This document shows positions 1,727 through 63,388 of a DNA stretch of 64,000 nucleotides, piece after piece. Positions within the stretch are counted from its first letter, which is position 1, and each line of letters starts with the position of its first letter. The DNA comes from an uncultured Lachnospiraceae bacterium (lineage in GTDB: Bacteria; Bacillota; Clostridia; Lachnospirales; Lachnospiraceae). The stretch spans positions 102,729 through 166,728 of the forward strand of contig CAJUMV010000001.1 in the NCBI GenBank assembly GCA_910587715.1, in the 5' to 3' direction. The position numbers were made by a program, and so were the translations under genes. Under the pieces are notes generated by a model. That model was not told the DNA's origin. It ran no database searches and worked only from the letters and a program-made list of their open reading frames with translations.

Positions 1727-1744
1727 CGGGCTGCCTATGCCCGT
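1726..1744. terminator. Short hairpin between convergent genes (weak candidate bidirectional terminator)
   Basis: ACGGGC-tgcctat-GCCCGT, a 6-bp stem, lies in the 8-nt gap and overlap between the kinase stop and the GH5 stop. The flanking T-run is only short. Confidence 0.2.
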
Positions 1745-7325: not shown

Positions 7326-8468
7326 GTGGGAACAGGGACAGAGAACAAGGTAAATAGGGAAACGGGCGGCGGAGATTCTGCGGTCAGTGCGATACAGGCG
7401 GCGCTGCGAATTATGGTTTTTCTTGCGATATTCGTGGGTATCCTTCTGCCCGTATCTTATATGGTACGGACAAACGGCGACGTAAAGGACCGTTTTGCAG
7501 GCTTTTATGCGGAAAAGAAAGATTCGCTCGACGTTGTGATCATCGGTTCCAGCCCGGTCTTTCCTTACTATGCGGCGCCGAAGCTGTGGGGGGAGACGGG
7601 GATTGCCATGTACCCGCTTTCTACCAATGTACAGCGCCCTGCCGCCATGCGTTATCTGGCACAGGAGGCGGCGAAAAGCCAGTCGCCTGCGCTCTATATT
7701 TTCGAGATGCGCATGTTTACGATGGAAGAGGCGGGGCTGATGGAGAATATGGCATATACCCGGGGCGTAACGGATAATCTGCGCTATTCGCCTCAGCGAA
7801 TCCGCACGATACGAGGGTTGGTGCCGGAGGACGATGCGGAAGGGCGGCTAAGCTACTATTTTGATATTATGAAATATCACACGAACTGGAAAATGCTGGC
7901 GCTTCCCTCTGAGTGGGCGAACATGTTCTATCATCACAGCCATCCGCTGAAAGGCTATACTTTCCGGGACGAGGTGGGACCGCAGCCGCAGCCCGTCTGT
8001 GGCGGCGCAAAAGGCGTTTTGGCAATGCCAAAGGAGCAGGAAGCGTATTTACGGGAGCTGCTTGCTTATCTGCAGGAAAACAGGCAGGAGGCGTTGTTTA
8101 TCGCCTCTCCTTACGGGGAATCTCTGGAGGAACAACAGATGTTCAACTATATGGCGGATATTGTGGAAGAGAGCGGCTATGCCTTTTTGAATATGAACGA
8201 TTACTATGATGAGATTGGCATTGTTTTTGAGGAGGATTTCGCGGATTACGGCAGCCATACCAATGCAGTGGGGGCGGAAAAGTGTACGGATTTCCTGAAA
8301 AATTATCTGACTGCCCGCTACGCGCTCCCTGACCACCGTGGAGACGTTTCTTACGATTCGTGGGACAAAGCCTATGAGTTATGGAAAACAAGGCAGGATG
8401 AGGCTGCTAGGACGATTAGAGAGCGGATTGCGAACGGGGAGTATGCTGAAATCGCGGAAGAGGATTAG
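7326..8468 (+). CDS. Membrane-anchored SGNH/DltD/AlgJ-like protein (putative glycan O-acyl modification)
   Basis: GTG start with GAAGGAGG upstream and a single N-terminal TM. VVIIGSSPVF is a candidate Ser block. C-terminal DYGSHTNAVGA resembles the D-x-x-H(W/T) block of SGNH-like acyltransferases. Confidence 0.35.
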   Translation: MGTGTENKVNRETGGGDSAVSAIQAALRIMVFLAIFVGILLPVSYMVRTNGDVKDRFAGFYAEKKDSLDVVIIGSSPVFPYYAAPKLWGETGIAMYPLSTNVQRPAAMRYLAQEAAKSQSPALYIFEMRMFTMEEAGLMENMAYTRGVTDNLRYSPQRIRTIRGLVPEDDAEGRLSYYFDIMKYHTNWKMLALPSEWANMFYHHSHPLKGYTFRDEVGPQPQPVCGGAKGVLAMPKEQEAYLRELLAYLQENRQEALFIASPYGESLEEQQMFNYMADIVEESGYAFLNMNDYYDEIGIVFEEDFADYGSHTNAVGAEKCTDFLKNYLTARYALPDHRGDVSYDSWDKAYELWKTRQDEAARTIRERIANGEYAEIAEED

Positions 8469-21148: not shown

Positions 21149-22561
21149 ATGAATCGTAGAATGAAACTGATCGAGAGCTACCTGCTGCTCCTCACAGACT
21201 TGTGCAGTATCGCTTTTGCCTATATCATCGCTCTTCTGATACGATACCGGAAGTTTTCCCGCGTTATGGAACCGGAGCTTCACTTCGTGGTATGTATCGG
21301 TTTTTTGCTGTTCTGCACGATTTACAGCTTCTTGTTTGACTGGAACAGGGAGTTTATCAAAAGAGGCGTGCTTGTCGAGTTTATAGCGGTTACCAAGTTC
21401 AATGTCTTTATGGAGCTGTCCGTAATGGCTTTCCTTTTTATGATGCAAAGGGGCGCGGATGTCTCCCGTCTGGTGATGGGTTATTTTGCCATTCTGAATA
21501 TCTTTATCGTATGGCTTGTGAGACTCGCCATGAAAAAGGCGCTGCGGGTCTGGTTCACCGCCAAGTCCAATATTGTCAAAATCATGATCATCACGAAGGA
21601 TGCGGCGATGGAGAAAACGTTGTCTAAGCTGAAGGATGCCATGGATATCAACTATGAGATCGTGGCGCTTGCCTGTGTGGACAAGGACAGGAAGGGCGAG
21701 ACGGTGGAGGGCGTCGAGGTCAACGCAAATCGGGAAAACGTGCTCTCCATGGCAAGGCAGATGCCGCTGGACGAGGTGTTTATCAGCCTGCCGGATGAAG
21801 ATATGGCATATGTAAAGCATATCATTTATGATTTGGAGTCCATGGGCGTGGCATGTCATTACAATATTGATATCATAGAAAGACCCAGCAAGGAAGTGCG
21901 GGTGGGAAGTTTCGCCGGGTTTACGGTGGTGACCTACTCCATCAACCATTTTGACTACAGGCGTATGGTAGTGAAGCGGCTGATTGATATTGCAGGCGGT
22001 CTGGTGGGATGTTTAATAACGATTGTTATCACTCCTTTTGTGGCGCTTGCCATCAAGCTGGATTCGCCGGGACCGGTACTCTTTGCGCAGACGAGAATCG
22101 GGAAAAACGGGCGCCGCTTTAAGATTTATAAGTTCCGCTCCATGTATACGGATGCGGAGGTGAGAAAGAAAGAGCTGGAAGCCCAGAACGAGATGCAGGG
22201 GCTTATGTTTAAGATGGAAAATGATCCGCGGATTACGAAGGTGGGGAAATTTATCAGAAAGACGAGCATCGACGAGCTGCCGCAGTTTTTTAATATTGTG
22301 AAGGGCGATATGAGTCTGGTGGGTACCAGACCGCCGACAGAGGGCGAGTTCGAACAGTATAATTCTCACTACAGGCGCAGGATTAGCATGACGCCGGGGC
22401 TCACGGGGCTTTGGCAGATCAGCGGCAGAAGTGAGATTGTGGATTTTGATGAGGTTGTGAAGCTGGATTTAGAGTATATCGACAACTGGACGCTGGGGCT
22501 GGATATCAAAATCCTGTTCCAGACGGTGTGGGTGGTGTTGACGGGCAGAGGGTCCAAATAG
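21149..22561 (+). CDS. Polyprenyl-phosphate hexose-1-phosphate transferase, large WbaP/CpsE type (priming enzyme)
   Basis: N-terminal TM bundle plus the C-terminal Bac_transf motifs KRLIDIAGGLVG, PGPVLFAQTRIGKNGRRFKIYKFRSM and DELPQFFNIVKGDMSLVGTRPP. Confidence 0.9.
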   Translation: MNRRMKLIESYLLLLTDLCSIAFAYIIALLIRYRKFSRVMEPELHFVVCIGFLLFCTIYSFLFDWNREFIKRGVLVEFIAVTKFNVFMELSVMAFLFMMQRGADVSRLVMGYFAILNIFIVWLVRLAMKKALRVWFTAKSNIVKIMIITKDAAMEKTLSKLKDAMDINYEIVALACVDKDRKGETVEGVEVNANRENVLSMARQMPLDEVFISLPDEDMAYVKHIIYDLESMGVACHYNIDIIERPSKEVRVGSFAGFTVVTYSINHFDYRRMVVKRLIDIAGGLVGCLITIVITPFVALAIKLDSPGPVLFAQTRIGKNGRRFKIYKFRSMYTDAEVRKKELEAQNEMQGLMFKMENDPRITKVGKFIRKTSIDELPQFFNIVKGDMSLVGTRPPTEGEFEQYNSHYRRRISMTPGLTGLWQISGRSEIVDFDEVVKLDLEYIDNWTLGLDIKILFQTVWVVLTGRGSK

Positions 22562-32991: not shown

Positions 32992-34903
32992 ACTGACTTA
33001 CTGCAAAATTTTGGGGACAAACATTAATGTCACGAATATGGGGGACACCATCTCTTACATTACGGACAATCTGGAGGAATTGAAGGGAGACTACATCTGC
33101 GTTTCCAATGTGCACACAACGGTGATTGCCTACCGTGACAAAGCGTACCGCAATGTGCAAAACAGCGGGGCGATGGCGCTCCCTGACGGACAGCCCCTGT
33201 CCATCGTCAGCAGAAAAAGAGGCTTTTCGCAGGCAAGACGGGTGCCGGGACCGGATTTGATGCCTGCGATTCTTGAATTGTCGCAAAAGACGGGATACCG
33301 ACATTATTTTTATGGCAGTACGCAGGCTACGCTGGAAGCGCTGCGGGCGGTTCTGCTGCGGCGGTATCCGAAGCTGCAGATTGCGGGTATGTATTCTCCG
33401 CCGTTTCGAGAGCTGACAAAGGAAGAGGATGAGGAGATTGTCCGGCAGATTAATGACAGCGGCGCCGATTTTGTGTGGGTGGCGCTTGGCGCGCCGAAGC
33501 AGGAGTGGTGGATGTACGAGCACCGTCACAGAATCAGGGCGTTGATGCTTGGCGTGGGTGCGGCGTTTGATTTTACGGCGGGCACGACCAAACGTGCGCC
33601 TATGTGGATGCAGAAGCTGTGTATGGAATGGGTGTTTCGCATTCTGCGGGATCCGAAACGTATGCTGCCCAGATATTTAAGTACGAATTTTTCTTTTTTG
33701 TATCATGTGTACCGTGAGGGAAGGAAAATCAGGCAGGCGGCGAAAAAGGGAATGCACATCGCCATGATTGGGCACAAGCGGATTCCGTCCAGAGAAGGCG
33801 GCGTGGAGGTGGTGGTGGAAGAACTCTCCGTGCGCATGGCGGCAAAGGGGCACCGTGTGGACGCGTATAATCGTTTCGGGCACCATGTTTCCGGTAAAAA
33901 ATACGATGACGAGTACGGCTGGAAGGGACGGAAATATTACAAGGGCATCCGTGTTTATATCGTGCCCACTTTTCGTAGCAGCAGCCTGAATGCGATTGTA
34001 TATACCTTTTTTGCAACGATTATGGCGCTTTTTCATCACTATGATGTCATTCATTATCATGCGGAGGGTCCCTGCGCCATGCTCTGGCTGCCGCACTTTC
34101 TGAAAAGGAAGGTTGTGGTGACCATTCACGGTCTGGACTGGCAGCGTGCCAAATGGGGGAATTTTGCATCCTTTGTAATCAAATTCGGCGAGCGGATGGC
34201 GGCGAAATATGCGGACGAGATTATCGTGCTGTCGGAAAACGTAAAGCAGTATTTTTTGGACACATACAACAGAAAGACAATATATATTCCCAACGGGATT
34301 AACAGACCGGACGCGCAGGGGCAGACCGTGATTCGTGAAAAATATGGTTTGGAAAAGGACGGTTATTTCCTGTTCCTTGCGCGGATTGTGCCGGAAAAGG
34401 GACTGCACTATCTGATAAAAGCGTTTTCCGGGCTGGATACGGATAAAAAACTGGTAATTGCGGGGGGCAGCTCTCAGGCGGTCGGCTACATGGAAGAGAT
34501 TCACCGGATGGCGGCGAAGGATGAGAGAATCCTTATGACGGATTTTGTGCAGGGACAGGTTCTGGAAGAGCTTTATGCCAATGCGTACGCCTTTGTGCTG
34601 CCGAGCGATGTGGAGGGTATGGCGCTTACGCTGTTAGAGGCAATGAGCTACGGAGACTGCTGTCTGGTCAGCGACATCCGCGAGAATACGGAAGTGGTGG
34701 AGGATAAGGCGCTGACCTTTAAAAAGGGCGACGTGGAAGATTTGAGAAGACAGCTTGCGTGGATGCTCTCACACCCCGACGAGGTGCGCCGCATGGGGGA
34801 AGAGAGCGTGGACTTTATCTGCGGCAAGTACGAGTGGGATGATGTGACGGAGCGGACGATTTTTGTATATAAGAAGGCGGCAGGGAAAAAGGAGAAGGTT
34901 TGA
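32981..34903 (+). CDS. Bifunctional fusion: GT26 (WecB/TagA/CpsF family) N-domain plus GT4 (DUF1972-type, RgpA/WchF-like) C-domain
   Basis: The N-half has ILGTNINVTNM, PDGQPLSIVSR and VWVALGAPKQEWWM. The C-half has MHIAMIGHKRIPSREGGVEVVVEEL and LPSDVEGMALTLLEAMSYGDCCLVSDIREN. Confidence 0.75.
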   Translation: MKNELTYCKILGTNINVTNMGDTISYITDNLEELKGDYICVSNVHTTVIAYRDKAYRNVQNSGAMALPDGQPLSIVSRKRGFSQARRVPGPDLMPAILELSQKTGYRHYFYGSTQATLEALRAVLLRRYPKLQIAGMYSPPFRELTKEEDEEIVRQINDSGADFVWVALGAPKQEWWMYEHRHRIRALMLGVGAAFDFTAGTTKRAPMWMQKLCMEWVFRILRDPKRMLPRYLSTNFSFLYHVYREGRKIRQAAKKGMHIAMIGHKRIPSREGGVEVVVEELSVRMAAKGHRVDAYNRFGHHVSGKKYDDEYGWKGRKYYKGIRVYIVPTFRSSSLNAIVYTFFATIMALFHHYDVIHYHAEGPCAMLWLPHFLKRKVVVTIHGLDWQRAKWGNFASFVIKFGERMAAKYADEIIVLSENVKQYFLDTYNRKTIYIPNGINRPDAQGQTVIREKYGLEKDGYFLFLARIVPEKGLHYLIKAFSGLDTDKKLVIAGGSSQAVGYMEEIHRMAAKDERILMTDFVQGQVLEELYANAYAFVLPSDVEGMALTLLEAMSYGDCCLVSDIRENTEVVEDKALTFKKGDVEDLRRQLAWMLSHPDEVRRMGEESVDFICGKYEWDDVTERTIFVYKKAAGKKEKV

Positions 34904-36792
34904 TGCACAAAAGAATTGATATGGGTATCATGCTGGTTGTGGCAGTTCTGGCGGCGCTGGTTTTCTTATATGCCACCGGACAGAATAATGTGATACTGGA
35001 AACGGACAAGGAAGAGGGAAATGCTCTCTATGTCCGTGTCGGGACCGCGCAGAGCGAAAACAGAGTGCTTCTGTGGCAGGATGGGAATGCGGAGGAAGGA
35101 CCGACAGGATACTTTTTTCTGCCATCCTGCGTCAATCATCATAAAATCCGTCTGGGTGATACGGGTGAAAGCAGCGTGAGAATCGACGGAAGGCTCTATG
35201 AGGAGGGAGACATCTTTACCTGGGAGGAGAATCGCATATACGGGTTTCAGATTACGGACGCTTCCTACGAGTCGCATACCTATGAGGTCTGTTTTATGAA
35301 GTCAGGGCACATCCCAGCCATGTTTATAGATACGGCGAGCGGCAGTCTGGATTATCTGCATGAGGATAAGGAGAACGAAGAGCCGGGAAAGATTTGTGTG
35401 GTGCAGGAAAACGGCGTTACGGAATATCAGGACGAGCTGCTTCGCATTTCAGGAAGGGGAAATTCGACATGGGAGTTTGCGAAAAAGCCCTATGCGCTTA
35501 AGCTAAAGGAGGACCAGCCCCTCTGCGGTCTGCGGGAGAGTGACCGGTGGCGGCTTTTGGCGCTCTGGAATGAGGGCAGCAGGCTGGGGGATAAGATAGC
35601 CATGGATCTGGCGCAGGAACTGGGGCTTTCTTACAGTACACAGGGAACCTGGGTAGATTTGTATTTGAACGGGGAGTACAGAGGTATTTATCTTCTGACA
35701 GAGTCTGTGACGGTCGGAGAAGGCCGGATTAATATCAATGATATGGAAAAGGACAACAAACGAAAAAACGCATCCATAGAAGCGGGGACGGCACAAAAGT
35801 ATGTGGAGGAAGACAGCAAAGGTTTCCTGTTGGAGAACGGAACGGAGACAGACGGCGGTTATCTGATCGAGAAAGATCATCCGAAACATTGGGAAGCGGA
35901 GGAAAGCGGCTTTCGCCTTTCCCGGGGCGATCTCTTTACGATTAATGCGCCGCGCCATGCGTCGAAGGAGCAGGTGGCTTATATCCGGAATTATGTGGAG
36001 GAAATCGACGCTCTCGTGCAGAATGCGGATCCTGCGGTCTGGGAGAAGCTGGATCTGACAAGCTTTGCCCAAAGGTTTTTGGTGGACGAGATTGCGCTGG
36101 AAATGGACACGGGTTCTACCAGCATGTATTTTTATAAGGACAGAGGAGAGGAAAAGCTCTATTCTGGTCCTGCATGGGATTATGATAACGCGTTCGGCGA
36201 GGATAGCGACAGCGACGGCTTCTTTGTGAATTATGGGGAAACGATCGTGAACAATAATGAGCGGCTGGCAATCGCAATCAACTGGTATCAGAAACTCTAT
36301 GAGACACCGGCGCTTTATCAGTGCATTGTGGAGGAGTATGCGGGAACGCTGCCGTTTTTCGAGAAACTTTTAAGTACGGATATCGACAGGTATGCGGACC
36401 GGATCAGGGCTTCCGTTCGGATGGATGACGCCCGGTGGGAAAGTGTCAGGGCTTCTGAGGGCGACCAGCCGCGGTATGCAAGTTATGACGCGAATGTCAA
36501 TTATACCAAATTCTTTCTCGCAAACCGTCTGAATTGTCTGTGCGCAAGATGGAATGTGCCTCATGAAGCGTTTACCGCGCCTGCAAGCGGAGAAATGCAT
36601 CAGGTTACCTTTTCGGTTTACGAGGGCGTGGTGGAGACGGTGGAAGCGTCGGACGGAGAGCCGCTTTCCTACACGCCGGACTATGACAGCGGCGTGTACC
36701 AGGGATGGGTATACCGGCGCAGCGGCGAGCCTTACAGCAGTTATATTCCTGTTTATGAGGATATGGAAATGTACAATGCAAAATGGGAGTAG
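34903..36792 (+). CDS. CotH kinase-family protein, N-terminally membrane-anchored (paralog 1)
   Basis: MHKRID plus a hydrophobic anchor. RISGRGNSTWEFAKKPYALKL, DRWRLLALWNEGS and WVDLYLNGEYRGIYLLTE are CotH-family motifs. The ATG at 34903 overlaps the upstream TGA. Confidence 0.75.
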   Translation: MHKRIDMGIMLVVAVLAALVFLYATGQNNVILETDKEEGNALYVRVGTAQSENRVLLWQDGNAEEGPTGYFFLPSCVNHHKIRLGDTGESSVRIDGRLYEEGDIFTWEENRIYGFQITDASYESHTYEVCFMKSGHIPAMFIDTASGSLDYLHEDKENEEPGKICVVQENGVTEYQDELLRISGRGNSTWEFAKKPYALKLKEDQPLCGLRESDRWRLLALWNEGSRLGDKIAMDLAQELGLSYSTQGTWVDLYLNGEYRGIYLLTESVTVGEGRININDMEKDNKRKNASIEAGTAQKYVEEDSKGFLLENGTETDGGYLIEKDHPKHWEAEESGFRLSRGDLFTINAPRHASKEQVAYIRNYVEEIDALVQNADPAVWEKLDLTSFAQRFLVDEIALEMDTGSTSMYFYKDRGEEKLYSGPAWDYDNAFGEDSDSDGFFVNYGETIVNNNERLAIAINWYQKLYETPALYQCIVEEYAGTLPFFEKLLSTDIDRYADRIRASVRMDDARWESVRASEGDQPRYASYDANVNYTKFFLANRLNCLCARWNVPHEAFTAPASGEMHQVTFSVYEGVVETVEASDGEPLSYTPDYDSGVYQGWVYRRSGEPYSSYIPVYEDMEMYNAKWE

Positions 36793-46949: not shown

Positions 46950-47312
46950 ATGATACCTGCTACACTCAGAGTGACGCTGATTGTTGCGGTGGTCTGCTAT
47001 TTTATTATTATTCTGTATTTTCTGAAAAATAAGGCGTTGAATTTAAAATATACGCTGTTATGGCTGGTAGCCGGTCTGGTTATGGGCATTTTGGTTGCCG
47101 TGCCGGAACTTTTAGTGAAAATTATCCGTATATTCGGTATACAGGATAATATGAACGGTCTGTTTATCTTTGCTATCGGGTTTATGATTATGATCCTGCT
47201 TTCCCTGACGTCGATTGCATCGAGACAGAACCAGAAGATCAGGACACTGACGCAGGAGCTGGCAATTTTAGAGAAGCGGGTGCGCGATCTGGAGAAGAAA
47301 GATGCGGACTGA
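46950..47312 (+). CDS. Small membrane protein, DUF2304-like
   Basis: 120 aa with 3-4 TM helices and a C-terminal amphipathic tail LTQELAILEKRVRDLEKK. The GT2+DUF2304 gene pair is a recurrent arrangement. Confidence 0.55.
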   Translation: MIPATLRVTLIVAVVCYFIIILYFLKNKALNLKYTLLWLVAGLVMGILVAVPELLVKIIRIFGIQDNMNGLFIFAIGFMIMILLSLTSIASRQNQKIRTLTQELAILEKRVRDLEKKDAD

Positions 47313-49257
47313 CAGGTATGGATTCCGGCAAGGGATAATGGGGCGTGATATGGGATACAGAACGAAACGGCGCGGGATACTTGTTTTTTTGGCTGTTTTT
47401 TTGATGTTGATCGTGGTATTTATGCAGAAGCGGGAATACAGCCAAATACAGAAAGACGGCGCTTATATAGAAAATCTCTGCTTTGTCCTGAGTAATTCCG
47501 CATCGGAACAGGAAATATTTTGTTTTACGGATAAGGCAGCACAGGTAAATTATTTGTTTCTCCCGTCCTATGCGAAGATGGAGGAAGTGCGGATTTCCTT
47601 TGCGGGGGCCACAACCGTGGTCTTTGCGGGGACGCAGGGGGAGGTTTCGCTGGTAAACGGCGAGTCTGTCGGGGCGCTTTGCTGCGGCGAAAAATACGAA
47701 CTGTTTTTTTGTGGCAAAAAAGGAGAAAAGCTGGAAAAACAAGAAATGGTTATTATGCATTCCGCCGGGCTGCCGGCTGTTTTTCTGGAAACGGACAGCG
47801 GTTCCCTGAATCAGTTAAACGCAGATAAAAATTATGCGGAAAAGGGAAGGATTGTCCTGTTTGACGCAGCGGGAAACGTAGTGTGTGCGGATAAGCTGGA
47901 CCGCATTTCCGGGCGGGGAAATTCCACCTGGGCTTACCCGAAGAAGTCCTACGGTATCCGGTTGAAAAGCAGGGCGGATCTCTTTGATATGGGAAGCGCC
48001 GATAAATGGATTCTTTTGAGCAATGTGGAAGACCGCACTTATATCCGCAATAAGATTACCTACGATATGGGCGTGGCGGCGGGAATGACGGGATCGCCGC
48101 AGTCGCAGTATATCGATCTCTATGTCAATCACAGATATCACGGCATGTACCAGCTCTGCGAGAAGGTGGAGATTGACCCGGAGAGGGTGCCGATAACCGA
48201 TTTAGAGGCGGAGAACGAAAATCTGAACAGGGATATAGAAAACTGCGGGCGCTTCGGGACGGAGAGAAAAAAGGGTGTGGTGCTTCCTGCCGAGCCGCGT
48301 GACCTGACAGGGGGATATCTCCTTGAGAGGGATGTGGTTGAGAAATTCAACGAGGAGGTCAGCGGGTTTTATACGGAAACGCTGAAAGACTTGTATACGA
48401 TTAAAGAGCCTGCATATGCTTCGGAAGCGCAGGTGGATTATATCAGTGGGCTTGTGAATGCATTGGAGCTGGCTGTGGTTTCGGAGGATGGCGTGAATCC
48501 GGAAAGCGGGATGCACTACTCGGAGTACATAGATATGCGCTCTTTTGCACAAAAATATATTGTGGAGGAGCTGACGAAAAACAATGGCGGCGGCGCGACC
48601 AGTTCTTTTTTCTATAAACCGGAAGATGAGGTCAGCCGGGAACTCTTCGCCGGACCGGTTTGGGATTATGATAAGGCATATGCCAACCTGACGGGTATTA
48701 ACGAATCAACGGATGACCTGTGCTATCTGATGCAGCGGGGCACGGATCCTACAACGCTCTTTTGGCATCTCAATGAGCACCCGGATTTTCGCCGGATGGT
48801 TTCCTCGTGTTATGGGGAATTTTTTGCCGATTATATGCAGACGATTCAGGAGGAAAAGATTGAAGAATATATAGCGGAAATCAATGCCGCCAAAGACATG
48901 GATTTAATCAGGTGGAAAGAAATTTACGGGGAATCAGTGGATTATGAGGGTGAGGTACAGAGGATTCGGGATTTCCTGTCTGCGCGCAAGCTGTTTTTGG
49001 ACAAGGTATGGAAAGAGCAGCGGGAGATATGTACGGTAAGTTTCGTTTCGGAAGACGGCGGAATCCACAATTATATGAGTGTGTTAAAAGGCGATTGCCT
49101 TGAGCGGATGCCGGGAGAGGAATCCGGAACGGTAAGCGGGGACAGAGTATTCGACGGCTGGTATACGGAGGGCGGTATGTTGTTTGATGGGACGGCGCCT
49201 GTTTTGGAGGATGTTGTAGTATATGAAAGGAGCCATGATGCTTCATATTGCAGTTGA
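47302..49257 (+). CDS. CotH kinase-family protein, N-terminally membrane-anchored (paralog 2)
   Basis: TKRRGILVFLAVFLMLIVVF is the anchor. RISGRGNSTWAYPKKSYGIRL, DKWILLSNVEDRT and YIDLYVNHRYHGMYQLCE are CotH motifs. Confidence 0.75.
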   Translation: MRTDRYGFRQGIMGRDMGYRTKRRGILVFLAVFLMLIVVFMQKREYSQIQKDGAYIENLCFVLSNSASEQEIFCFTDKAAQVNYLFLPSYAKMEEVRISFAGATTVVFAGTQGEVSLVNGESVGALCCGEKYELFFCGKKGEKLEKQEMVIMHSAGLPAVFLETDSGSLNQLNADKNYAEKGRIVLFDAAGNVVCADKLDRISGRGNSTWAYPKKSYGIRLKSRADLFDMGSADKWILLSNVEDRTYIRNKITYDMGVAAGMTGSPQSQYIDLYVNHRYHGMYQLCEKVEIDPERVPITDLEAENENLNRDIENCGRFGTERKKGVVLPAEPRDLTGGYLLERDVVEKFNEEVSGFYTETLKDLYTIKEPAYASEAQVDYISGLVNALELAVVSEDGVNPESGMHYSEYIDMRSFAQKYIVEELTKNNGGGATSSFFYKPEDEVSRELFAGPVWDYDKAYANLTGINESTDDLCYLMQRGTDPTTLFWHLNEHPDFRRMVSSCYGEFFADYMQTIQEEKIEEYIAEINAAKDMDLIRWKEIYGESVDYEGEVQRIRDFLSARKLFLDKVWKEQREICTVSFVSEDGGIHNYMSVLKGDCLERMPGEESGTVSGDRVFDGWYTEGGMLFDGTAPVLEDVVVYERSHDASYCS

Positions 49258-54720: not shown

Positions 54721-56436
54721 ATGGACGAGAAGATAGAACTGCGGGGCTGGCTTGCCGCCAGCCGGGATATGAAAATCACCTGTCTTGGTGAATATATGGA
54801 TTTGGGCGTCTGCGTGCAGTATCGGAATCTGCTAAATAAATTTCCGCAGGATCAGATTTTTTTGTCGGATGCGGATCAGGTCTGCTTTTTGGACGGCTAT
54901 GTGCACAATAAGGAGGAGTTCCTCTGCCCCGAAGGGTTCGGACAGTGGCAGGAATCTTTTGCCAGCTCTTTTTTGAAAGACCGGACAGCTCATTTTCGAA
55001 AACTGAGAGGAGCCTTTTGCGGGTATTTCTATGATAAGGAAACGAATCAGATTACCGCTTATACGGATCATGTTTCCAATAAGGCGCTATACTATTATGT
55101 GGATGGCGACAGATGGATTTTTTCCAATTACGTGGATTTTATCGTGCGCGTTCTGCGGGCGAACGGCATTGCCTTCCACTTCGATGAGACTGCCGCCAAA
55201 TATATGTTGTCTTATGGGTACATGCTGGATGACAGTACCTATGTGAAAGAAATCCGCCGCCTGCTTCCGGGCTGTTATATGACGGTCGCCGGGGACGGGG
55301 CGGAAATAACGCAGTATTATAAGCTGTGCTGTCACGAACAGTCCATGACGGAGGACGAAGCGCTGGAGAGACTGGATGTATCGTTCCGGCAGGCAGTGGC
55401 AAGGGAGTTTGAGAAGGATAAGGAGTACGGCTATCAACATCTGGTTGATTTAAGCGCCGGGCTGGACAGCCGCATGGTCTGCTGGGTGGCGCATGATATG
55501 GGCTATACGGAACAGACGAATCTGTCTTACAGTAAGCTTGGCTATCGTGATGACCTTATTTCGGGAAAAATTGCGACGCATCTGGGGCACGAATATCTTT
55601 TCCGGGCGCTTGATGATGTGCGGTGGATGTATGATGTGGATGAGATGACCCTGAAAAATAACGGCGCGGCGATTTGTCATGGCATGACCGGCGGCAACCG
55701 GATGCTCAAATCCGTCAATATGGAACGATATGGGATAGAGCATACGGGAATTATCGGCGGACCGACTATGGCGAGCTACTACAAGGACCGGGCGACAGCG
55801 TACGCGAAACCGCGGTATGGGCTGAATACTTACTCTACAAAACTCGGATATACTTTTGATGAAAAAGTGCTTGCGCAGCATGAGACGCAGGAAGCGTTTG
55901 CTATGAATACGCGCGGACTTCTGGGGATGCAGGTTTCTTATATGACCAGACAGAACTATATCGAGTGCGCGTCTCCCTTTGCGGATGTGGACATGCTGGA
56001 GACAGCCTTTTCCATCCCTTATGAATACCGTGTGGACGATAAATTATATCTGCGCTGGATTGCGGAAAAGTATCCCGGCGCGGCGGAGTTCGGCTGGGAA
56101 AAATGGGGCGGGGTAAAGCCCAAAAAGAGCCATATTTTTTTCAGAAAGGTAAAGACAACGCAGCGCCTGGCAAATAGTTTTTGTCACGGACTGCTGCATA
56201 AGCCGGATGCTGATTCCATGAACCCTATGGATTATTGGTACAGCCGGGAGGAAAAGGTCAGGACGTATCTGGACAGCATGTATGCGGAGCGGATGAAAAG
56301 CGCAGTGCTGCCCCGGGAGCTGGCGGATGATATGCGCGGGCTTTACGAGAAGGGAAATTTTGTTGAGAAAAGTCTGGTGCTGACGGTGCTTAGCGCAGTG
56401 CATCTGTATTTGGAAGGCGGTACGGTAAACGGATAG
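54721..56436 (+). CDS. Asparagine-synthase-domain protein lacking the N-terminal Cys nucleophile (PseA-like amidoligase candidate)
   Basis: The PP-loop DLSAGLDSRMV is present, but the N-terminus is MDEKIELRG with no Cys2. Confidence 0.55.
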   Translation: MDEKIELRGWLAASRDMKITCLGEYMDLGVCVQYRNLLNKFPQDQIFLSDADQVCFLDGYVHNKEEFLCPEGFGQWQESFASSFLKDRTAHFRKLRGAFCGYFYDKETNQITAYTDHVSNKALYYYVDGDRWIFSNYVDFIVRVLRANGIAFHFDETAAKYMLSYGYMLDDSTYVKEIRRLLPGCYMTVAGDGAEITQYYKLCCHEQSMTEDEALERLDVSFRQAVAREFEKDKEYGYQHLVDLSAGLDSRMVCWVAHDMGYTEQTNLSYSKLGYRDDLISGKIATHLGHEYLFRALDDVRWMYDVDEMTLKNNGAAICHGMTGGNRMLKSVNMERYGIEHTGIIGGPTMASYYKDRATAYAKPRYGLNTYSTKLGYTFDEKVLAQHETQEAFAMNTRGLLGMQVSYMTRQNYIECASPFADVDMLETAFSIPYEYRVDDKLYLRWIAEKYPGAAEFGWEKWGGVKPKKSHIFFRKVKTTQRLANSFCHGLLHKPDADSMNPMDYWYSREEKVRTYLDSMYAERMKSAVLPRELADDMRGLYEKGNFVEKSLVLTVLSAVHLYLEGGTVNG

Positions 56437-56471
56437 CGTATGGCGGTATGCTCTGACATGGAGGAGTGAGT

Positions 56472-57851
56472 ATGAAGAAACAGGTGGAAGAAGTAGATTT
56501 TCTTATGATTTACGAGCATAAGGTAAGGGAATTGGAAAACCTGTGCCTGATTAAATATGAGCTGGAGAGACGGGGATATAAGGTCGTCATCAAGCATATC
56601 GAGGACGAGGAGGCGCTCGATGCGGTCAAGCCTGTCTATCACGCGAAGGTGGTCACTACGATGGCATGTTACCAGAACGCGTCTTTAGAATGGCATACCA
56701 AAGACTTTGTATCCTTCGACAAAGTGATAGACATGCAGTGGGAGAACATCGTTTATCCGAAGGACGAGCGGGCGGGCGTCTTCAAAAATTATACGGGAAT
56801 CGGCAGAGAGGTCGTGCGTGTGTCCTGGGGAGAAGCCAACAAACGGCGGCTTTTGAAGGCGGCGCATATGGACGAGCGCAATATCAAAGTAGTAGGGCAT
56901 GTGGGAATGGACTTTTTGAGAAGCAGTCTCAGAGGATATTATCTGAGCCGGGAGGAGCTTTTTAAGCAGTATGACCTGCCTGTGGATAAAAAGGTACTGT
57001 TGTTTGCATCGCCTTTCTATGCGGACAATCTTACTGAGCAGTATATCGCCGGTATGTGTAAAAGGCACGGGGATGACTGGCGCGATTACTATGCGTTTAT
57101 GATGCGGTCCGAAAAAGCCATTTTAGAGTGGATGGAAAAGCTGTGCAACGAGCGGGATGATATGATAGTGATTTACAGACCTCATCCCGGTCACATCGGG
57201 AAGCATATGTCTGAGGTGGCCAAGAGATGCCCGAATTTTAAAGTAATCAGCGAGAAGTCCGTCAAACAGTGGATTTTAGCTTCCGACGTCATATACACGG
57301 GCAACAGCTCTACAATCGTGGAAGCGTTTTTTGCGGACAAAATGTGCTACCTTCTTTTTCCTTATGAAGTGACGGACGGGTATGAGTTGAAGCTGATCAG
57401 CAAAGGGGAAAAGATTCGGGACTATGAGTCGTTTTACAGGTCGGCTGTAGGGGAGGGCGGACCGTTCCCGATTTCGCGGGAGGCGATCAACGACATTTAT
57501 CTTGTGGATGATGTGCCGAGTTATGTGAAATTCGCGGATATGGCAGAGGAGGTGCTGCGCGACCCGTCCTACGCGCTGACGGCGGAGCAGTTAAAATCCT
57601 ATCGGAGAAAGCAGCCGGTGACCGTGAAAATTCAGAAAATGCTCCAGCGGCAGGATTGGTTTTATGATAAATACCGCAAAATGCTGGCGGATGAGAACTG
57701 TCACAATAAATGGATTGAAAAACAGCGCGCCCTGCGGCGGCAGAAGGCGGAGCGGAACAAGCGGTTTGCCATCGAGAGCACGAGCGAGCAGGAGATTGCG
57801 GCGATTGTGCGAAAGATCGCGGCGCAGTTGGAAGGAAACAGTAAGCAGTAG
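56472..57851 (+). CDS. Surface-carbohydrate biosynthesis protein-like (putative CMP-sugar-dependent glycosyltransferase)
   Basis: I set the start at ATG 56472, after GGAGGAG. Motifs are DFLMIYEHKVRELENLCLIKYEL and YRPHPGH...SDVIYTGNSSTIVEAFF. It lies between nonulosonic-acid-type genes. The family assignment is tentative. Confidence 0.35.
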   Translation: MKKQVEEVDFLMIYEHKVRELENLCLIKYELERRGYKVVIKHIEDEEALDAVKPVYHAKVVTTMACYQNASLEWHTKDFVSFDKVIDMQWENIVYPKDERAGVFKNYTGIGREVVRVSWGEANKRRLLKAAHMDERNIKVVGHVGMDFLRSSLRGYYLSREELFKQYDLPVDKKVLLFASPFYADNLTEQYIAGMCKRHGDDWRDYYAFMMRSEKAILEWMEKLCNERDDMIVIYRPHPGHIGKHMSEVAKRCPNFKVISEKSVKQWILASDVIYTGNSSTIVEAFFADKMCYLLFPYEVTDGYELKLISKGEKIRDYESFYRSAVGEGGPFPISREAINDIYLVDDVPSYVKFADMAEEVLRDPSYALTAEQLKSYRRKQPVTVKIQKMLQRQDWFYDKYRKMLADENCHNKWIEKQRALRRQKAERNKRFAIESTSEQEIAAIVRKIAAQLEGNSKQ

Positions 57852-57895: not shown

Positions 57896-58576
57896 ATGAG
57901 CGATAAGATTACAGCAGTAGTACCGGTAAAGGGAAACAGCACGAGGCTGCCCAACAAAAACATTTTACCTTTTGGGGACTCCAATTTATTGCAGCACAAG
58001 ATTGAGCAGCTGAAGCAGGTGAAGGGGCTTCACGAGATTATCGTGTCCTCCGATTCCGATGAGATGCTTGCCATTGGTGAAAAATGCGGGGTGAAGGCTA
58101 TCAAAAGACCGGAGCAGTATGCCAATGAATCCGTGCCTTTCGGTATGTTTCTGGAGTATTTGTGCGATACGATCGAGGGCGACCACCTTCTCTACGCCTG
58201 CGCGACTTCGCCCTGCGTGGAGCCTTATCTGTATGAAAAGGCAATCAAGGTATATTTCGAAAAGCTGAAGGAGGGGTATGATTCCCTGATTACGGTTTCT
58301 CCTTACCAGACGTATCTGATGGACGATAACGGTCCTTTGAATTTTAAGATGGGGCTGGAGCATAAAAATTCCGAGCAGCTTCCGATGATGTATCATTTTA
58401 CAAACGGCATCGATCTGGCGCCTACCGAGAAAGTGCGGGAGTGGCATTACAATTACGGTCCGAAATATTATCAGCTAGTTATCAATAAGCGCGAGGCGGC
58501 GGATATCGACGATTTGTACGACTATGAGATGGCAAAGGCGCTGTATGCTATGAAGGATCCGAATCCGACGGTGTAA
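57896..58576 (+). CDS. Acylneuraminate (ulosonic-acid) cytidylyltransferase family protein
   Basis: ITAVVPVKGNSTRLPNKNILPFGDSNLL is the CTP_transf_3 N-terminal motif, in a 226-aa ORF with a GGAGGAAAA RBS. Confidence 0.8.
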   Translation: MSDKITAVVPVKGNSTRLPNKNILPFGDSNLLQHKIEQLKQVKGLHEIIVSSDSDEMLAIGEKCGVKAIKRPEQYANESVPFGMFLEYLCDTIEGDHLLYACATSPCVEPYLYEKAIKVYFEKLKEGYDSLITVSPYQTYLMDDNGPLNFKMGLEHKNSEQLPMMYHFTNGIDLAPTEKVREWHYNYGPKYYQLVINKREAADIDDLYDYEMAKALYAMKDPNPTV

Positions 58577-58603: not shown

Positions 58604-61166
58604 ATGGAAAAACGTGCCGCAGAGAGCAGAAAGACGGTATATCTGCTTTATACGCTAGGATTCTGTGTGTTGTCAGGAATTATCGTATTTTTTCAGGTTA
58701 TAAACGGAAGATCCTTTATCCACGTAGTGGATATATTGGATCAGGATTATTCGGTTTTTTTATATCTGGGCAGACAGCTCAGGCAGGCACTCAGCTCAGG
58801 GACGCTGCATTTTTATGATTTTTCTATCGGTCTGGGTGCAGATTTGATTTCATATCTGAATAATAATGGACTTGGAGATCCGCTCAATCTGCTTTCTGTC
58901 TTTGCAGTTGGGAAAGCGGCGCCGCAGGTCTATGCCTTGGCTCTGTTTCTGCGGATGTATCTGGCAGGGATTGGCTTATTGATGTATTGCCGCAGTCATG
59001 GGAAGGATAAAGGCTTATGTATTCTGGCTGGTCTTTCTTATGCGTTTTCACTTTTTGCGATTACTTATGGTTTACAATATTATCAAACGATGAACGCGGC
59101 GTACCTGTTTCCGTTTCTGTTGCTTCAACTGGAGAGGCTGATACAACGAAAAGAGTCGGATGTCAGCGCAGGGATAAAATTTGCTCTGCTGATTGCGGTT
59201 CAGGCGTGCTGCAGCTACTATTTTCTCTATATGCAGACTATCATGCTGCTTGTATATGCGGTAGTCGATTTCTTTACCACATATAAGAACGACTGGCTTC
59301 TGTTCGGGAAAAAGGTCATTTCTGTCGGCATGTATTATTTGCTGGGAATTATGGCCTCGGCGGTCGTGATTTTTCCGGCGGTCAGCGGTTTCCTGACAAG
59401 CGCGAGAGCCGGGGTGGGAATCGGCGGAAGGATGCGGCTGCTTTGGACTGCGGATGAGTTGATACCTATGGCCGCAGATTTATTTGTACCCATGTTAACG
59501 AGCTGGGATCAGGCGTCTTTGGGAATTTCCATGATTAGTTTACTGGCGTTTTTGACATGCATTGTCAGTAAGAGAGCAAAAGAGAGGAGTCTTGCGATTT
59601 TGCTTGCCTTCGCCTATATCTGTCCGGTCGCATGGAGTATATTTAACGGGTTTTCCTATCCATCGCATCGTTGGATGTATGTGGTCCATTTTGCGATTGC
59701 ATACAGCACGATTCTATTTATAGAACATGTGAGCGATGGGGGGGGGGCAAAACAGATGGCTCGAGCTTGCAGGATGCATTCTGTTCCTCGTATCCATGTG
59801 CATGCATTTTTATACCTGTGGGGATAAGATAAGAACCCTTTGCTATACAGGAATAGCGTTTTTAGGACTGTATCTTTTAAAAGCAGACAAGAAAATAAGA
59901 TTACGGGCGCTGACGCTGTTGTGTATGGGAAATTTACTGATAAATATTATTTTTTTGACAGCGCCTTATCAGATATGCGGGCAGGATATGTGGAAGCGGT
60001 TTCATACCCTGGATAGAGTAGAAAAAGCCGCGTCTGATATGTGCATGTCCGAAGTGACGGAAGATGAATGGTATAGAATAGACTGCGAGGGCAGCACGCG
60101 GGCGGAAAGTATCATACAAAATTATAAGGGCTGCGAAGCATATTACAGCGCAATGAATGAAAATATCTGGTCCTTTTATGATATGCTGCAAATTTCTCCC
60201 GGTATTTGCGGAGCGGTACACATCTTGATTGGACTGGATGAACGGGCAGTATTGCGGTCTCTGCTCAGCGTGAAATACTTTGATAATATGGAAACAGAGC
60301 CAAACGACTACATGCTTCCGTTTGGTTTTGAATACGCCGAAGCAATTTCGGAGGATGAATGGAAGCGGATGCCCCCGTTGGAGAGGCAGGATAGCATACT
60401 TAACAAAATGGTGTTGGAGGAGACGGATGTATCTGAAAGCCCGGAAGACACGAGCGGGTCGGGACTTCGGGAGCTGTCGTATACAATACAGTACAAAAAC
60501 GCGGTAAAGCAGGGAAGTACGATTGTTCCCGGGGAAAATGCAGAAATGCGCATACGGATTTCTGAGGAGCTGCCGCCTGCGGAGGAAGCGGAGCTGTACG
60601 TTTGGCTAAAAGGTTTTCAGGGGCATCATTCTATGGGGAGTCAGGGTGTTATTGTAGGAGATAAATTTTTGTATGTGGATAGTCACGACCTTGAAAATGT
60701 GTATTCGACCGGGCAAACAGATTATCTGGTTAAAGTGAATGCCGATGGGCAGGATATAACGATAAAACTGCCGAAGGACAATCCATATACCCTGGAGGAT
60801 ATACAGATATATCTGTATTCGCTTGACGGGCTGGACGAAACCGTCAGGAGGCGGAAGGAACACAGCCTTGAAAATTTGCAGTACAGTAACGATGCAATCG
60901 AGGGAGATATTTCGTCGGCGGGCGGTTATCTGTTCCTGAGCATTCCCTATGATAAGTTTTGGAGAGCTTACGTGGATGATGTGCAGATGCCAATTTACAG
61001 GGCAAATGTAGGATTTATGGCGGTTAAGCTGATCGAGGGCAGGCATCACGTTCGCCTCGTGTATGAGCCGACTCTCGAAAAGGCGGGTTTTGCGGTAACA
61101 TTTTTGGGAATTGTAATATTATGTGGCATGCTGGTATGGGATAAAAGGCGATCTCATTTGCACTGA
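58604..61166 (+). pseudogene. yfhO: YfhO-family GT-C membrane glycosyltransferase, split into two frames at a G10 tract (OFF state or homopolymer sequencing error)
   Basis: ORF 58604-59827 carries the YfhO-like N-terminus and TM core. ORF 59736-61166 carries the remaining TMs plus the C-terminal domain (RAYVDDVQMPIYRANVGFMAVKLIEGRHHVRLVYEP). The frames meet at 59738-59747. A G9 tract would give one ORF of ~853 aa reading ...FIEHVSDGGGQNRWLELAG... Confidence 0.7.
59738..59747 (+). repeat. Poly-G homopolymer (10 G), candidate slipped-strand mispairing site
   Basis: Counted directly as gat-gggggggggg-caa. It is the longest G/C run I found in the window. The others are 7 or shorter. Confidence 0.9.
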
Positions 61167-61186
61167 GTTTTTCCAGATGCTATACT
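61158..61186 (+). promoter_or_regulatory. Candidate internal SigA-type promoter TTGCAC-N17-TATACT
   Basis: TTGCAC at 61158-61163 overlaps the end of the YfhO gene. A 17-nt spacer precedes TATACT at 61181-61186, 64 nt upstream of the aldolase-fusion ATG. Confidence 0.35.
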
Positions 61187-61249
61187 ATCTTAGGTATGGA
61201 AGATGCGTGTCTGCAGCGGTGTGCAGATATGACAGGTAAAAGGAGCGTT

Positions 61250-62842
61250 ATGTCAGAGATTAAACTATTAGACTGTACCCTCCGCGACGGCGGGTATATC
61301 AACGACTGGAATTTCGGAGAATATACAATCCGGGACATCCTGTCGAAATTAATTGAGTCCGGCGTGGACTATATCGAAGTGGGGTTTCTGCGCGACTGTG
61401 TGTATGACAGGAACAAAGCCCTCTACAATAACTGTGCCGAAATTGCTCACATTTTGCCGGAGAAGCGCGGCAGCGCGAAGTTTACCGCCATGTCCCTGCA
61501 CAATAAATACAGCATCGACAAGCTGGAGCCTTATGACGGGAAAACGATAGATGCGCTGCGGGTGACCTTTCACGACTATGACATCGACGAGGGGCTGGAA
61601 TACATCCGAAAAGTGAAGGATAAGGGCTACAAGGTGTTTGCCAATCCCATCAATATCATGGGCTATTCGGATGAAATGATTCTGCGTCTGTTACAGAAAA
61701 TCAACGAGATACAGCCCTATGCCTTTTCTATCGTTGACACCTTCGGTTCCATGATGAAGGACGATCTGCAGCGGATTTATTCCCTGATTGAGCACAATCT
61801 GCGCAAGGATATTGTGATTGGTCTGCATCTGCATGAGAATCTGGCGCTGTCCTACTCGCTGGCGCAGGATTTCATCGGCATGAAGGCGAGCGACAGGGAT
61901 TGTGTGATTGACGCGTCCATGCTCGGTATGGGGCGTTCGCCGGGCAATCTTTGCATGGAGCTTATCATGGATTATATGAATAAGCGCCAGTCCGGGCACT
62001 ATGATGTGAATCCCGTATTGGACGGCATCGACGATCATATCGCAAGGCTGAAGCAGATAGAGCCCTGGGGCTACAACACGGCGTATGCACTGTCGGCGAA
62101 GTATAATCTCCACCGCAACTATGCGGAGTTTCTGCTAGACAAGGGCAGGCTTCGCGCAAAGCAGATTAACCAGATTCTCGGGAGTATCGAGGAACACAAG
62201 AAAACCGCTTATGATGAGACATATATAGAGGGGTTGTATCAGGACTTCCAGAATAAGGCGGTTGACGATGCGCAGACGCTTAAGGACTTGGCAGGAAAAC
62301 TGGCGGGAAAGAAATGTCTGATTCTGGCGCCGGGTTCGAGCATCCTTGGGGAAAAGGAGCGGATTGACCACTATATTGCGGAGGAAAATCCGATTGTATT
62401 CTCGGCAAATTTCGTGCCGGAGACATATGAGGCGGATTATGTTTTCTGTTGTAACGCCATGCGGTTTGAGATGCTGCTTGGCAAAAAGACGATGCCGGCG
62501 CTTGTGGTTACATCTAATCTGCTGGAGATGTGCGAGGATGAAAGACTTGGCGGCAGGCAGCCCTTGATTGTGAATTATACAGATTTGCATTTTGACGAGG
62601 AAAGACCATATGACAATAGTGTCATAATGCTGCTGCGGCTTTTAAAGAAGCTGGAAGTGTCCGATGTGGCGCTTGCCGGATTTGACGGATATCGGGCGGG
62701 CAGCAGGGAGAACTATGTAGCGGACTACATGGCGAGCCAGCATACGAAGGGCGATGAAGAAAATAAGCGGATTAAGGAGCGTATGGGGCAGATGGAGAAG
62801 CAGATGAACATCTGCTATCTGACGAAATCGCTATATCATTAA
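61250..62842 (+). CDS. Fusion protein: HMGL-like (DRE-TIM) aldolase domain plus MptE-like/DUF115 (Maf-like) domain
   Basis: I set the start at ATG 61250, after AAAGGAG. The N-half has LLDCTLRDGGY...GVDYIEVGF and GLHLHENLALSYSLAQ. The C-half has CLILAPGSSI, VFSANF, DYVFCCN and VALAGFDGY. Confidence 0.65.
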   Translation: MSEIKLLDCTLRDGGYINDWNFGEYTIRDILSKLIESGVDYIEVGFLRDCVYDRNKALYNNCAEIAHILPEKRGSAKFTAMSLHNKYSIDKLEPYDGKTIDALRVTFHDYDIDEGLEYIRKVKDKGYKVFANPINIMGYSDEMILRLLQKINEIQPYAFSIVDTFGSMMKDDLQRIYSLIEHNLRKDIVIGLHLHENLALSYSLAQDFIGMKASDRDCVIDASMLGMGRSPGNLCMELIMDYMNKRQSGHYDVNPVLDGIDDHIARLKQIEPWGYNTAYALSAKYNLHRNYAEFLLDKGRLRAKQINQILGSIEEHKKTAYDETYIEGLYQDFQNKAVDDAQTLKDLAGKLAGKKCLILAPGSSILGEKERIDHYIAEENPIVFSANFVPETYEADYVFCCNAMRFEMLLGKKTMPALVVTSNLLEMCEDERLGGRQPLIVNYTDLHFDEERPYDNSVIMLLRLLKKLEVSDVALAGFDGYRAGSRENYVADYMASQHTKGDEENKRIKERMGQMEKQMNICYLTKSLYH

Positions 62843-62866
62843 AGCGAAAAAGAAAGGAAACGGAAC

Positions 62867-63388
62867 GTGGGAGACTGGCAAAAGATTAAATATCTTGTGA
62901 TTGACGTGGACGGCACCATGACGGACGCGGGGATTTTCTATGATGAGCACGGCAATGAACTGAAAAAATTCTGCACCAAGGATGCGGCGGGATTTTTCGC
63001 GGCACGCAGGGCGGGGATTAAAATTCTTGTCCTGACGGGACGGGAGTGCGCCGCCACGACGAGACGCATGGGTGAGATGAAGGTAGATTTTCTTGTGCAG
63101 AACTGTAAGGATAAAGTGCCTTATCTGGAAAAATTTCTGTGTGAACAGGGCGTTTCCTGGGAAGAAATGGGGTATTTGGGAGATGACTTAAACGACTTGC
63201 CGGGCATGAGCCGCTGCGGATTTGCGGGATGCCCTGAAGATGCCTGCGCGGAGGTAAAAGCCCGTGCGGATTATGTGTCCACGATTAAGGGCGGTTACGG
63301 TGCGGTGCGGGATATTGTGGAGCATCTGCTGCGCGCGCGGGGCGAATGGGAAAAAGTCACGGCGGAGATTTACGGAATTGGCGTGTAG
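62867..63388 (+). CDS. HAD-IIIA phosphatase, KdsC/YrbI family (ulosonate-phosphate phosphatase-like)
   Basis: VIDVDGTMTD is HAD motif I. VLTGR and YLGDDLNDLP (motif IV) are also present. The 173-aa ORF has a GTG start after AAAGGAAA. Confidence 0.8.
   Translation: MGDWQKIKYLVIDVDGTMTDAGIFYDEHGNELKKFCTKDAAGFFAARRAGIKILVLTGRECAATTRRMGEMKVDFLVQNCKDKVPYLEKFLCEQGVSWEEMGYLGDDLNDLPGMSRCGFAGCPEDACAEVKARADYVSTIKGGYGAVRDIVEHLLRARGEWEKVTAEIYGIGV

Follow-up and report, generated by a model that had tools for sequence, protein, structure and literature searches.

In Campylobacter jejuni (lipooligosaccharide, capsule and flagellin glycosylation), Neisseria (lgtA/C/G, pgtA), Haemophilus and Helicobacter, surface-glycan genes carry an intragenic G/C run of 8-12, and the same arrangement is encountered in the DNA described here, a stretch of 64,000 nucleotides (nt; hereafter the window) from contig CAJUMV010000001.1 (assembly GCA_910587715.1, positions 102,729 to 166,728, forward strand) of an uncultured member of the Lachnospiraceae, an organism known only from metagenome-assembled genomes (MAGs). 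In this window a run of 10 G (G10) breaks the reading frame of a yfhO-type glycosyltransferase gene. The gene is probably a simple-sequence-repeat (slipped-strand) contingency locus through which one extracytoplasmic glycosylation step is turned on and off, and the window has caught it in its OFF state. A reading of the letters alone, made before this analysis and referred to below as the sequence-only reading, had proposed such an ON/OFF locus, and support for it has come from length polymorphism of the tract on identical backgrounds together with purifying selection on the gene.

The Lachnospiraceae feature prominently in the gut microbiota. The same concept, a stochastic ON/OFF control of a lipid-carrier-dependent extracytoplasmic decoration performed by a polytopic membrane transferase, is known from the gtrABC O-antigen glucosylation systems of Salmonella and Shigella, where the switch is epigenetic, acting through Dam/OxyR at the promoter and not through a repeat in the coding sequence; to our knowledge, GtrC proteins do not belong to the YfhO family. 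Bacteroides capsular loci are governed by invertible promoters (invertons), and invertible switches have been described in Clostridioides difficile for cwpV, the flagellar genes and cmrRST (PMC11868660). For the Clostridia, a 2025 review gives invertible elements only, with no repeat-mediated phase variation for either Clostridia or Lachnospiraceae (PMC11868660).

A poly-G tract that sets the reading frame of yfhO

The features of the gene in the window, all on the + strand, are as follows.

58604..61166, + strand: yfhO-type GT-C glycosyltransferase gene, in the frameshifted (OFF) G10 state; the ON form has 853 amino acids (aa) with G9 or 854 aa with G12
59738..59747, + strand: poly-G tract, G10, hypervariable, encoding Gly379-381 in the ON frame
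58604..59827, + strand: OFF-state product of 407 aa (378 native residues, three Gly and 26 out-of-frame residues)
59748..61166, + strand: downstream half of yfhO (ON residues 382-853), untranslated in the G10 state, its reading frame still open

Two open reading frames (ORFs), 58604-59827 (407 aa) and 59736-61166 (476 aa), overlap at the G10 in different frames, which confirms on the sequence the frame change reported there by the sequence-only reading. That reading had also expected a single ORF of about 853 aa from G9 or G12; recomputation gives 853 aa when one G is removed and 854 aa when two are added, each with a single terminal stop. The length of the tract, which lies inside the reading frame, thus sets the frame: G9 and G12 are in frame, while G10 and G11 terminate at 407 and 409 aa, the G10 stop being the 27th codon past the Gly codons, as had been stated. 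The last two bases of an Asp codon and the first G of the tract form an ATG (59736-59738), which shares the frame of the C-terminal half in the G10 state alone and is lost on a natural variant in which the T preceding the run is replaced by G. No ribosome-binding site is visible on inspection ahead of this ATG, and its overlap with the tract is probably a coincidence.

The G10 is the sole G/C run of at least 8 in the window, in keeping with its earlier description as the longest found. There are 8 runs of at least 6, where composition predicts 35.6, and only 2 reach at least 7. The earlier estimate of about 0.1 chance runs per 64 kb proved too low: the + strand is 30% G, and shuffles that preserve dinucleotides give 0.31 G10 runs per window, with one or more in 22 of 100 shuffles. 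The significance of the tract is thus not derived from composition; it stands out because it is an outlier against the depleted run-length distribution actually present, because it sits at a frame junction and because its length varies between samples. The whole window (1-64000) has a strongly positive GC skew, at about +0.2 from 4 kb onward, and the long ORFs between 3260 and 63388 lie nearly all on the + strand, as expected of one co-oriented gene array on a leading strand.

Tract-length variation in natural populations

About 28 loci carrying the gene were taken from independent ENA, Logan, NCBI and JGI assemblies. Among the length variants (loci L001-L024, L110 and L111) the tract was G9 in five, G10 in 11 in addition to the window, G11 in eight and G12 in two, and the variant with the preceding T->G change has uninterrupted runs of G8, G9 and G11. 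The gene occurs as three haplotypes that are 70-92 substitutions apart; members of one haplotype agree at all 2553 nt outside the tract and differ in its length. Haplotype A has G9 (4 samples), G10 and G11 (5 samples); haplotype B, that of the window, has G10 (the window and 5 loci spanning the whole gene) and G9; haplotype C has G10 and G11, and a variant that differs from it by 11 nt has G12. Intact alleles, G9 or G12, are found on three haplotype backgrounds, and the length changes on these backgrounds imply repeated switching events, though not their rate. The comparison with related strains and metagenome bins that the sequence-only reading had suggested has thereby returned lengths from G8 to G12 on otherwise identical DNA.

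When near-identical loci were compared over 3-14 kb, the sole real insertion or deletion (indel) between them was the tract. One locus (L024) aligns with the window over 8397 nt with 5 mismatches and 1 gap. Two samples of one sequencing project, SRR29503498 (G10) and SRR29503532 (G11), differ only at the tract over 5324 nt with 0 mismatches, and SRR10090105 (G10) and SRR10090100 (G11), again from one project, differ only at the tract over 3339 nt. Two small deletions were noted elsewhere between near-identical loci: L014 has a 36-bp in-frame deletion in its cytidylyltransferase gene (relative to L001 position 9718; 214 aa versus 226 aa), and L005 has lost 5 bp from the spacer that separates its aldolase and phosphatase genes (relative to window position 62859).

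The same states can be recognised in databases of proteins and contigs. The exact 407-aa G10 product was found in one NCBI MAG and in five Logan assemblies of the same haplotype, and the 90% protein clusters that contain the intact form also include discrete truncations at 407 and 409 aa together with a 456-aa C-terminal piece. A tally of contigs, drawn from partial lists and non-independent samples, gave about 104 G10 and 18 G11 (OFF) against about 10 ON, or roughly 12:1. As a control, in clusters of tract-free homologues (866, 852, 847 and 839 aa) nearly every contig of the same databases has the gene at full length, and the tract-bearing cluster is split in about 90% of its contigs. A pattern scan of JGI metagenomes gave one match.

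These data bear on the explanation that there is one fixed in-frame tract and that the assembled lengths are consensus noise from homopolymer sequencing or assembly errors. Among homopolymers, Illumina sequencing errs most readily at long G runs, coverage is as low as 2.7-5.5x in several of the ON or G11 contigs, and at a homologous tract in another species (L025/L068, see below) the MAG assembly breaks and leaves a poly-C artefact of 51 nt. Nevertheless, the identical G10 haplotype was recovered from an NCBI MAG and from five Logan assemblies, each of the lengths G9, G10, G11 and G12 recurs in several independent samples, projects and assemblers, and sample series agree internally (SRR225268xx, 4/4 G10; SRR333881xx, 2/2 G12; ERZ2843679x, 2/2 G11). 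Other runs in the compared stretches show no indels, and noise around a true in-frame length predicts ON as the commonest call, whereas OFF accounts for about 90%. Random assembly error is disfavoured by this reproducibility, by the tract-free controls and by the prevalence of OFF, not ON, calls, and we consider it very unlikely; a uniform in-frame tract masked by assembly error, which the sequence-only reading had named as a refuting outcome, is not what the public assemblies show. Two further candidates for variation were rejected: a split GT1 gene in L005 (16967-18230), considered as a second switch, reflects a scaffold N-gap, and short members of the ABC-exporter and WecG-GT4-fusion clusters, considered as frameshift variants, proved to be an unrelated protein and an N-terminally shortened call.

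The distribution of lengths also bears on the explanation that the G10 allele is itself functional, through +1 ribosomal frameshifting, RNA-polymerase slippage, or a split enzyme whose C-terminal half starts at ATG 59736. G10 is the commonest natural allele, at this length ATG 59736-59738 opens the 476-aa C-terminal ORF, and a run of identical bases permits re-pairing after a shift. Against this, the site is not fixed: lengths range from 8 to 12, G9, G11 and G12 are major alleles as well, and G11 would need the opposite shift. In-frame alleles exist, which sets the tract apart from obligate recoding sites. The T->G variant has lost the ATG, nothing resembling a Shine-Dalgarno sequence lies ahead of this codon, and inspection revealed no stimulatory stop or rare codon past the run. 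The marks of programmed recoding, namely a fixed slippery site, out of frame in all members and in a stimulatory context, were not found here, and a functional G10 allele is the least credible of the explanations considered.

Selection on the gene and the question of decay

In a contingency locus the gene is expected to be otherwise intact and under purifying selection. Between haplotypes, the ratio of nonsynonymous to synonymous substitution rates (dN/dS) ranges from 0.09 to 0.24 when the whole gene is considered. In the half downstream of the tract the range is 0.09-0.34, and binomial tests against neutrality gave p values of 4e-6, 2e-3 and 5e-10 there in the three haplotype comparisons. No second inactivating lesion or extra stop was detected on any haplotype in the approximately 28 loci. 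Apparent extra lesions with many stops in L014 and L020 turned out to be scaffold N-gaps and not mutations. The substitution pattern indicates that the downstream half is under purifying selection even though it is untranslated in the OFF state; since all haplotypes are mostly OFF and yet this half is selected, the pattern implies an ON state that is used often enough to matter. Simple decay, named by the sequence-only reading as an outcome that would speak against it, is thus not what the absence of a second lesion, the low downstream dN/dS and the intact alleles on three backgrounds describe.

A related explanation holds that the site is hypermutable and non-adaptive: the gene would be dispensable in the gut and mostly inactive, with a drifting tract and with ON alleles as transient by-products. 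The dominance of OFF lengths on all haplotypes (about 12:1 in contigs) would give the same picture if a hypermutable site lay in a usually dispensable gene. However, purifying selection acts on the untranslated downstream half between mostly OFF haplotypes, no second lesion accompanies the tract, and haplotypes with a dS of about 0.1 have retained the tract or, through the T->G change, a longer one. Together with the survey of other species described next, these points make non-adaptive drift rather unlikely in our view.

Tracts in YfhO homologues of other species

A survey using one genome per species, from which 80 loci with YfhO homologues (936 kb) were kept, did not return this species' own gene, its best match being about 40% identical. 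G/C runs of at least 8 occur nine times in these loci, and 6 of the 9 lie inside yfhO homologues, which make up 24% of the bases (binomial p 0.008). Runs of 9-11 in the homologues represent four sites in five loci, located at different codons of yfhO, and the frame breaks at the tract at three of the sites. The individual runs are as follows.

L026: G10 at 6569-6578, around codon 190, where the frame changes exactly; G9 or G12 would give about 910 aa
L068/L025: G11 (L068 6566-6576; L025 1-51), at the same site as in L026, in another species whose gene is 81% identical in DNA
L097: C9 at 7913-7921; C7 or C10 would give about 912 aa
L086: G10 at 7736-7745, around codon 579
L043: G10 at 45-54, tract in frame
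L077: G8 at 6666-6673, tract in frame

In L068/L025 the assembly breaks at the tract, and L025 begins there with the 51-nt poly-C artefact mentioned above. The retention of a homologous tract in two species with genes 81% identical, and the enrichment of G/C runs at different codons of yfhO homologues, would be hard to explain without selection for mutability, and they speak against non-adaptive drift; a second frameshift in L086, unrelated to any tract, suggests in its favour that real decay has occurred in that species.

Taken more widely, the survey raises the possibility that poly-G/C contingency tracts arose repeatedly at different codons in the YfhO-type GT-C genes of many gut Lachnospiraceae, some being kept across species, and that commensal Clostridia in general diversify their surface through slipping repeats in enzymes that decorate glycans outside the cytoplasm, a route not recognised so far. 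We advance this generalisation tentatively, as one that could readily prove wrong. The enrichment rests on 9 runs, of which two are orthologous, and with orthologues counted once 5 of 8 lie inside yfhO homologues (the p value of 0.008 is for 6 of 9). The frameshift of L086 counts here as well, and in L043 the frame changes at a G6 run close by, not at its G10.

The encoded protein and the effect of truncation

The identity proposed for the protein by the sequence-only reading, a YfhO-type GT-C glycosyltransferase, is borne out by profile and fold. The G9-repaired protein matches Pfam YfhO (PF09586) in one continuous alignment with 300.1 bits (cut-off 28.5) and an E value of 5.3e-89, residues 26-832 being aligned with profile positions 10-835 of 835, and an intact relative in the protein databases (P0001, 853 aa) is 97% identical. 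An AlphaFold model built with 20 homologues has a predicted local distance difference test score (pLDDT) of 82 and a predicted template modelling score (pTM) of 0.84. In this model about 13 predicted helices extend up to residue 452, followed by a predicted beta-rich domain (460-820) and one last helix (823-852). Foldseek searches of the PDB returned top matches that are all GT-C enzymes (AftD, EmbC, PglB, STT3, ArnT and AftA; probability 1.00, E 1e-6 to 1e-3), and a search of the PDB by sequence found no relative. The full-length profile match and the predicted fold thus identify the window protein as a YfhO-family GT-C glycosyltransferase. The nearest curated NCBIfam models, PgfM1 and PgfM2, score 66-68 bits against cut-offs of 1400-1500.

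Three aspartates, Asp43, Asp72 and Asp92 (the last in a G-D-P motif), are invariant in the 20 homologues and fall in the long loop between model helix 1 (9-33) and helix 2 (103-131); they are candidates for the conserved acidic (DxD-like) residues expected in the first extracytoplasmic loop of such enzymes. The tract-encoded Gly379-381 fall in a six-residue turn between predicted membrane helices 358-377 and 384-405; a fourth glycine, as in the 854-aa G12 form, should be tolerable because the glycines fall in this short inter-helix turn. According to the model, the OFF product is without three membrane helices, the beta-rich extracytoplasmic domain of about 370 residues and the final helix, and this truncated form would be expected to lose activity.

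One family assignment made by the sequence-only reading has to be corrected. Listeria GtlB, which had been cited as a YfhO member, is a PMT-2-type GT-C enzyme and not of the YfhO family (Table 2, PMC8035078). The Listeria YfhO homologue is Lmo1079, which adds N-acetylglucosamine to wall teichoic acid (PMC8035078).

Proposed switching mechanism

In the favoured reading, that of a slipped-strand contingency locus, the intragenic poly-G run would gain or lose G through slipped-strand mispairing at replication. With 9 or 12 G the whole 853/854-aa enzyme would be made in frame (ON); with 10 G, as in the window, or 11 G, translation would end 27-29 codons past the tract (OFF), and the last helices and the large extracytoplasmic domain would be lost. 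Switching would thereby turn on or off a single lipid-carrier-dependent step in the extracytoplasmic glycosylation of a wall polymer or surface protein, with heterogeneity of the surface glycans as the outcome, plausibly under pressure from phages or host antibodies. A mixture of lengths within one population and hence reversibility within a clone, the nature of the substrate and the selective agent are elements that we infer.

Several points weigh against this reading. Base composition alone does not make a G10 improbable. The tract lengths are those of assemblies, and the error-prone nature of the run, the thin coverage of some contigs and the dominance of OFF alleles, all set out above, belong to the same side of the balance. 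The biochemical role of the protein is assigned from family and predicted fold only. Furthermore, profile searches recognised no CsbB/GtrB-type lipid-sugar synthase or GtrA flippase in the 64-kb window, where the GT2 proteins reach only 24-41 bits with PgfS and 23-34 bits with ArnC-type models, well short of the cut-offs. The glycosylation partners of GT-C enzymes may be unlinked, as in Listeria (PMC8035078). The earlier proposal that the tract toggles one glycan decoration accordingly stands as regards the frame switch and the setting in a glycan locus, and its claim concerning donor and acceptor is to be softened, no such partner having been recognised in the window.

The conserved cassette and the glycan locus

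The gene lies in a cassette whose other members, all on the + strand, are the following.

54721..56436, + strand: AsnB-like amidotransferase (profile search; conserved-cassette synteny)
56466..57851, + strand: TIGR04396 'surface carbohydrate biosynthesis protein' (148.8 bits, cut-off 125; cassette synteny)
57896..58576, + strand: acylneuraminate/PseF-like cytidylyltransferase (CTP_transf_3), directly upstream of yfhO, a cassette member
61250..62842, + strand: HMGL-like (DRE-TIM) aldolase-family protein, directly downstream of yfhO, 530 aa in related loci
62867..63388, + strand: KdsC/KDN-9-phosphatase-like HAD-IIIA phosphatase (TIGR01670, 123 bits, cut-off 107; cassette synteny)

The aldolase ORF opens at 61196, its likely start being ATG 61250 behind the ribosome-binding site AAAGGAG. 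The cassette order (AsnB-like, TIGR04396, cytidylyltransferase, YfhO, HMGL-like aldolase, KdsC-like phosphatase) is conserved and also surrounds yfhO homologues that are 44-49% identical. The cytidylyltransferase (57896-58576) is 97-99% identical at the protein level in cassettes in which yfhO is only 40-54% identical; this holds for L026, L068, L105 and L106, where the other cassette genes are 40-86% identical. The possibility that yfhO is a uniquely divergent slot between conserved flanks was rejected, the AsnB-like and TIGR04396 genes being equally divergent (50-55%). Since only the cytidylyltransferase is so highly conserved and these two genes diverge as yfhO does, the sequences point to a mosaic cassette, or to a recent exchange of that one gene among lineages. 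A scan for promoters and terminators around yfhO performed no better than on shuffled sequences.

The cassette is part of one cell-envelope glycan locus of more than 55 kb in the window, with about twenty glycosyltransferases, a priming sugar transferase (21149-22561), a WecG-GT4 fusion, two ABC exporters and two CotH-like kinases. The latter, proteins with CotH-kinase domains (34900-36792, 630 aa; 47302-49257, 651 aa), stand among the glycosyltransferases and are unusual companions in a polysaccharide cluster. At the left end, a GH5 cellulase-family gene (1735-3096, - strand) and a histidine kinase (236-1726) may mark the boundary of the locus. Haplotype A has a 2-kb insertion right after yfhO (L001 12638-14552), absent from the window (61167-61249), which encodes a protein with an AbiEi_2 domain (353 aa, Pfam E 4e-12) and a 280-aa protein without a Pfam match; these may form an AbiE-type abortive-infection or toxin-antitoxin pair beside the switch gene.

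Comparison with known systems and significance

In the library searched, YfhO is nowhere connected with phase variation of its gene, nor is there a description of repeat-mediated phase variation in Lachnospiraceae, in agreement with the earlier remark that such a switch is not known to be well described for Clostridia-type organisms; none of the characterised YfhO systems has been reported as phase-variable. The mechanism itself is classical in pathogens, and what appears new is the YfhO enzyme family together with the Lachnospiraceae as host, neither of which was found described in this role.

If the switch is real, stochastic variation of a cell-wall glycan in these gut commensals would rely on the cheapest mechanism known, with a bearing on phage predation, recognition by immunoglobulin A and strain persistence. 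For annotation, calls of a 'split' or 'pseudogene' YfhO in MAGs would have to be read as switch states and not as errors. The tract also offers a marker that can be scored in existing reads, so that repeat-mediated phase variation in gut Firmicutes is testable without culture. The interest of the locus lies mainly in the strong evidence from natural populations and in the hint of recurring tracts in the YfhO genes of gut Lachnospiraceae.

The locus shares with those of Campylobacter, Neisseria, Haemophilus and Helicobacter an ON/OFF state determined by tract length modulo 3, the occurrence of several lengths on identical backgrounds and a gene that is otherwise intact. It differs from them in its host, an uncultured Gram-positive-type gut commensal of the Lachnospiraceae and not a Gram-negative pathogen, and in its enzyme, since their cytoplasmic GT-A/GT-B transferases are replaced here by a polytopic YfhO GT-C protein predicted to act outside the cytoplasm with lipid-linked donors. 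With the characterised YfhO members (YfhO of B. subtilis and S. aureus, Lmo1079 of Listeria; PMC5836110, PMC8035078) it has in common the Pfam family, the GT-C fold, a large C-terminal extracytoplasmic domain and a setting among cell-wall glycopolymer genes. Unlike in these systems, no CsbB-like GT-A enzyme or GtrA flippase was recognised next to the gene, and the gene sits in a cassette resembling those for cytidine monophosphate (CMP)-linked ulosonic acids. As with the invertible switches of Bacteroides and C. difficile, a heritable stochastic change in DNA would give rise to surface heterogeneity in gut anaerobes, although the change is brought about by site-specific recombination in those organisms and by repeat slippage here. 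Should the wider proposal on recurring tracts hold true, slippage in YfhO genes would be the counterpart in commensal Clostridia of the invertible promoters of Bacteroides, readable from metagenomes as mixtures of tract lengths.

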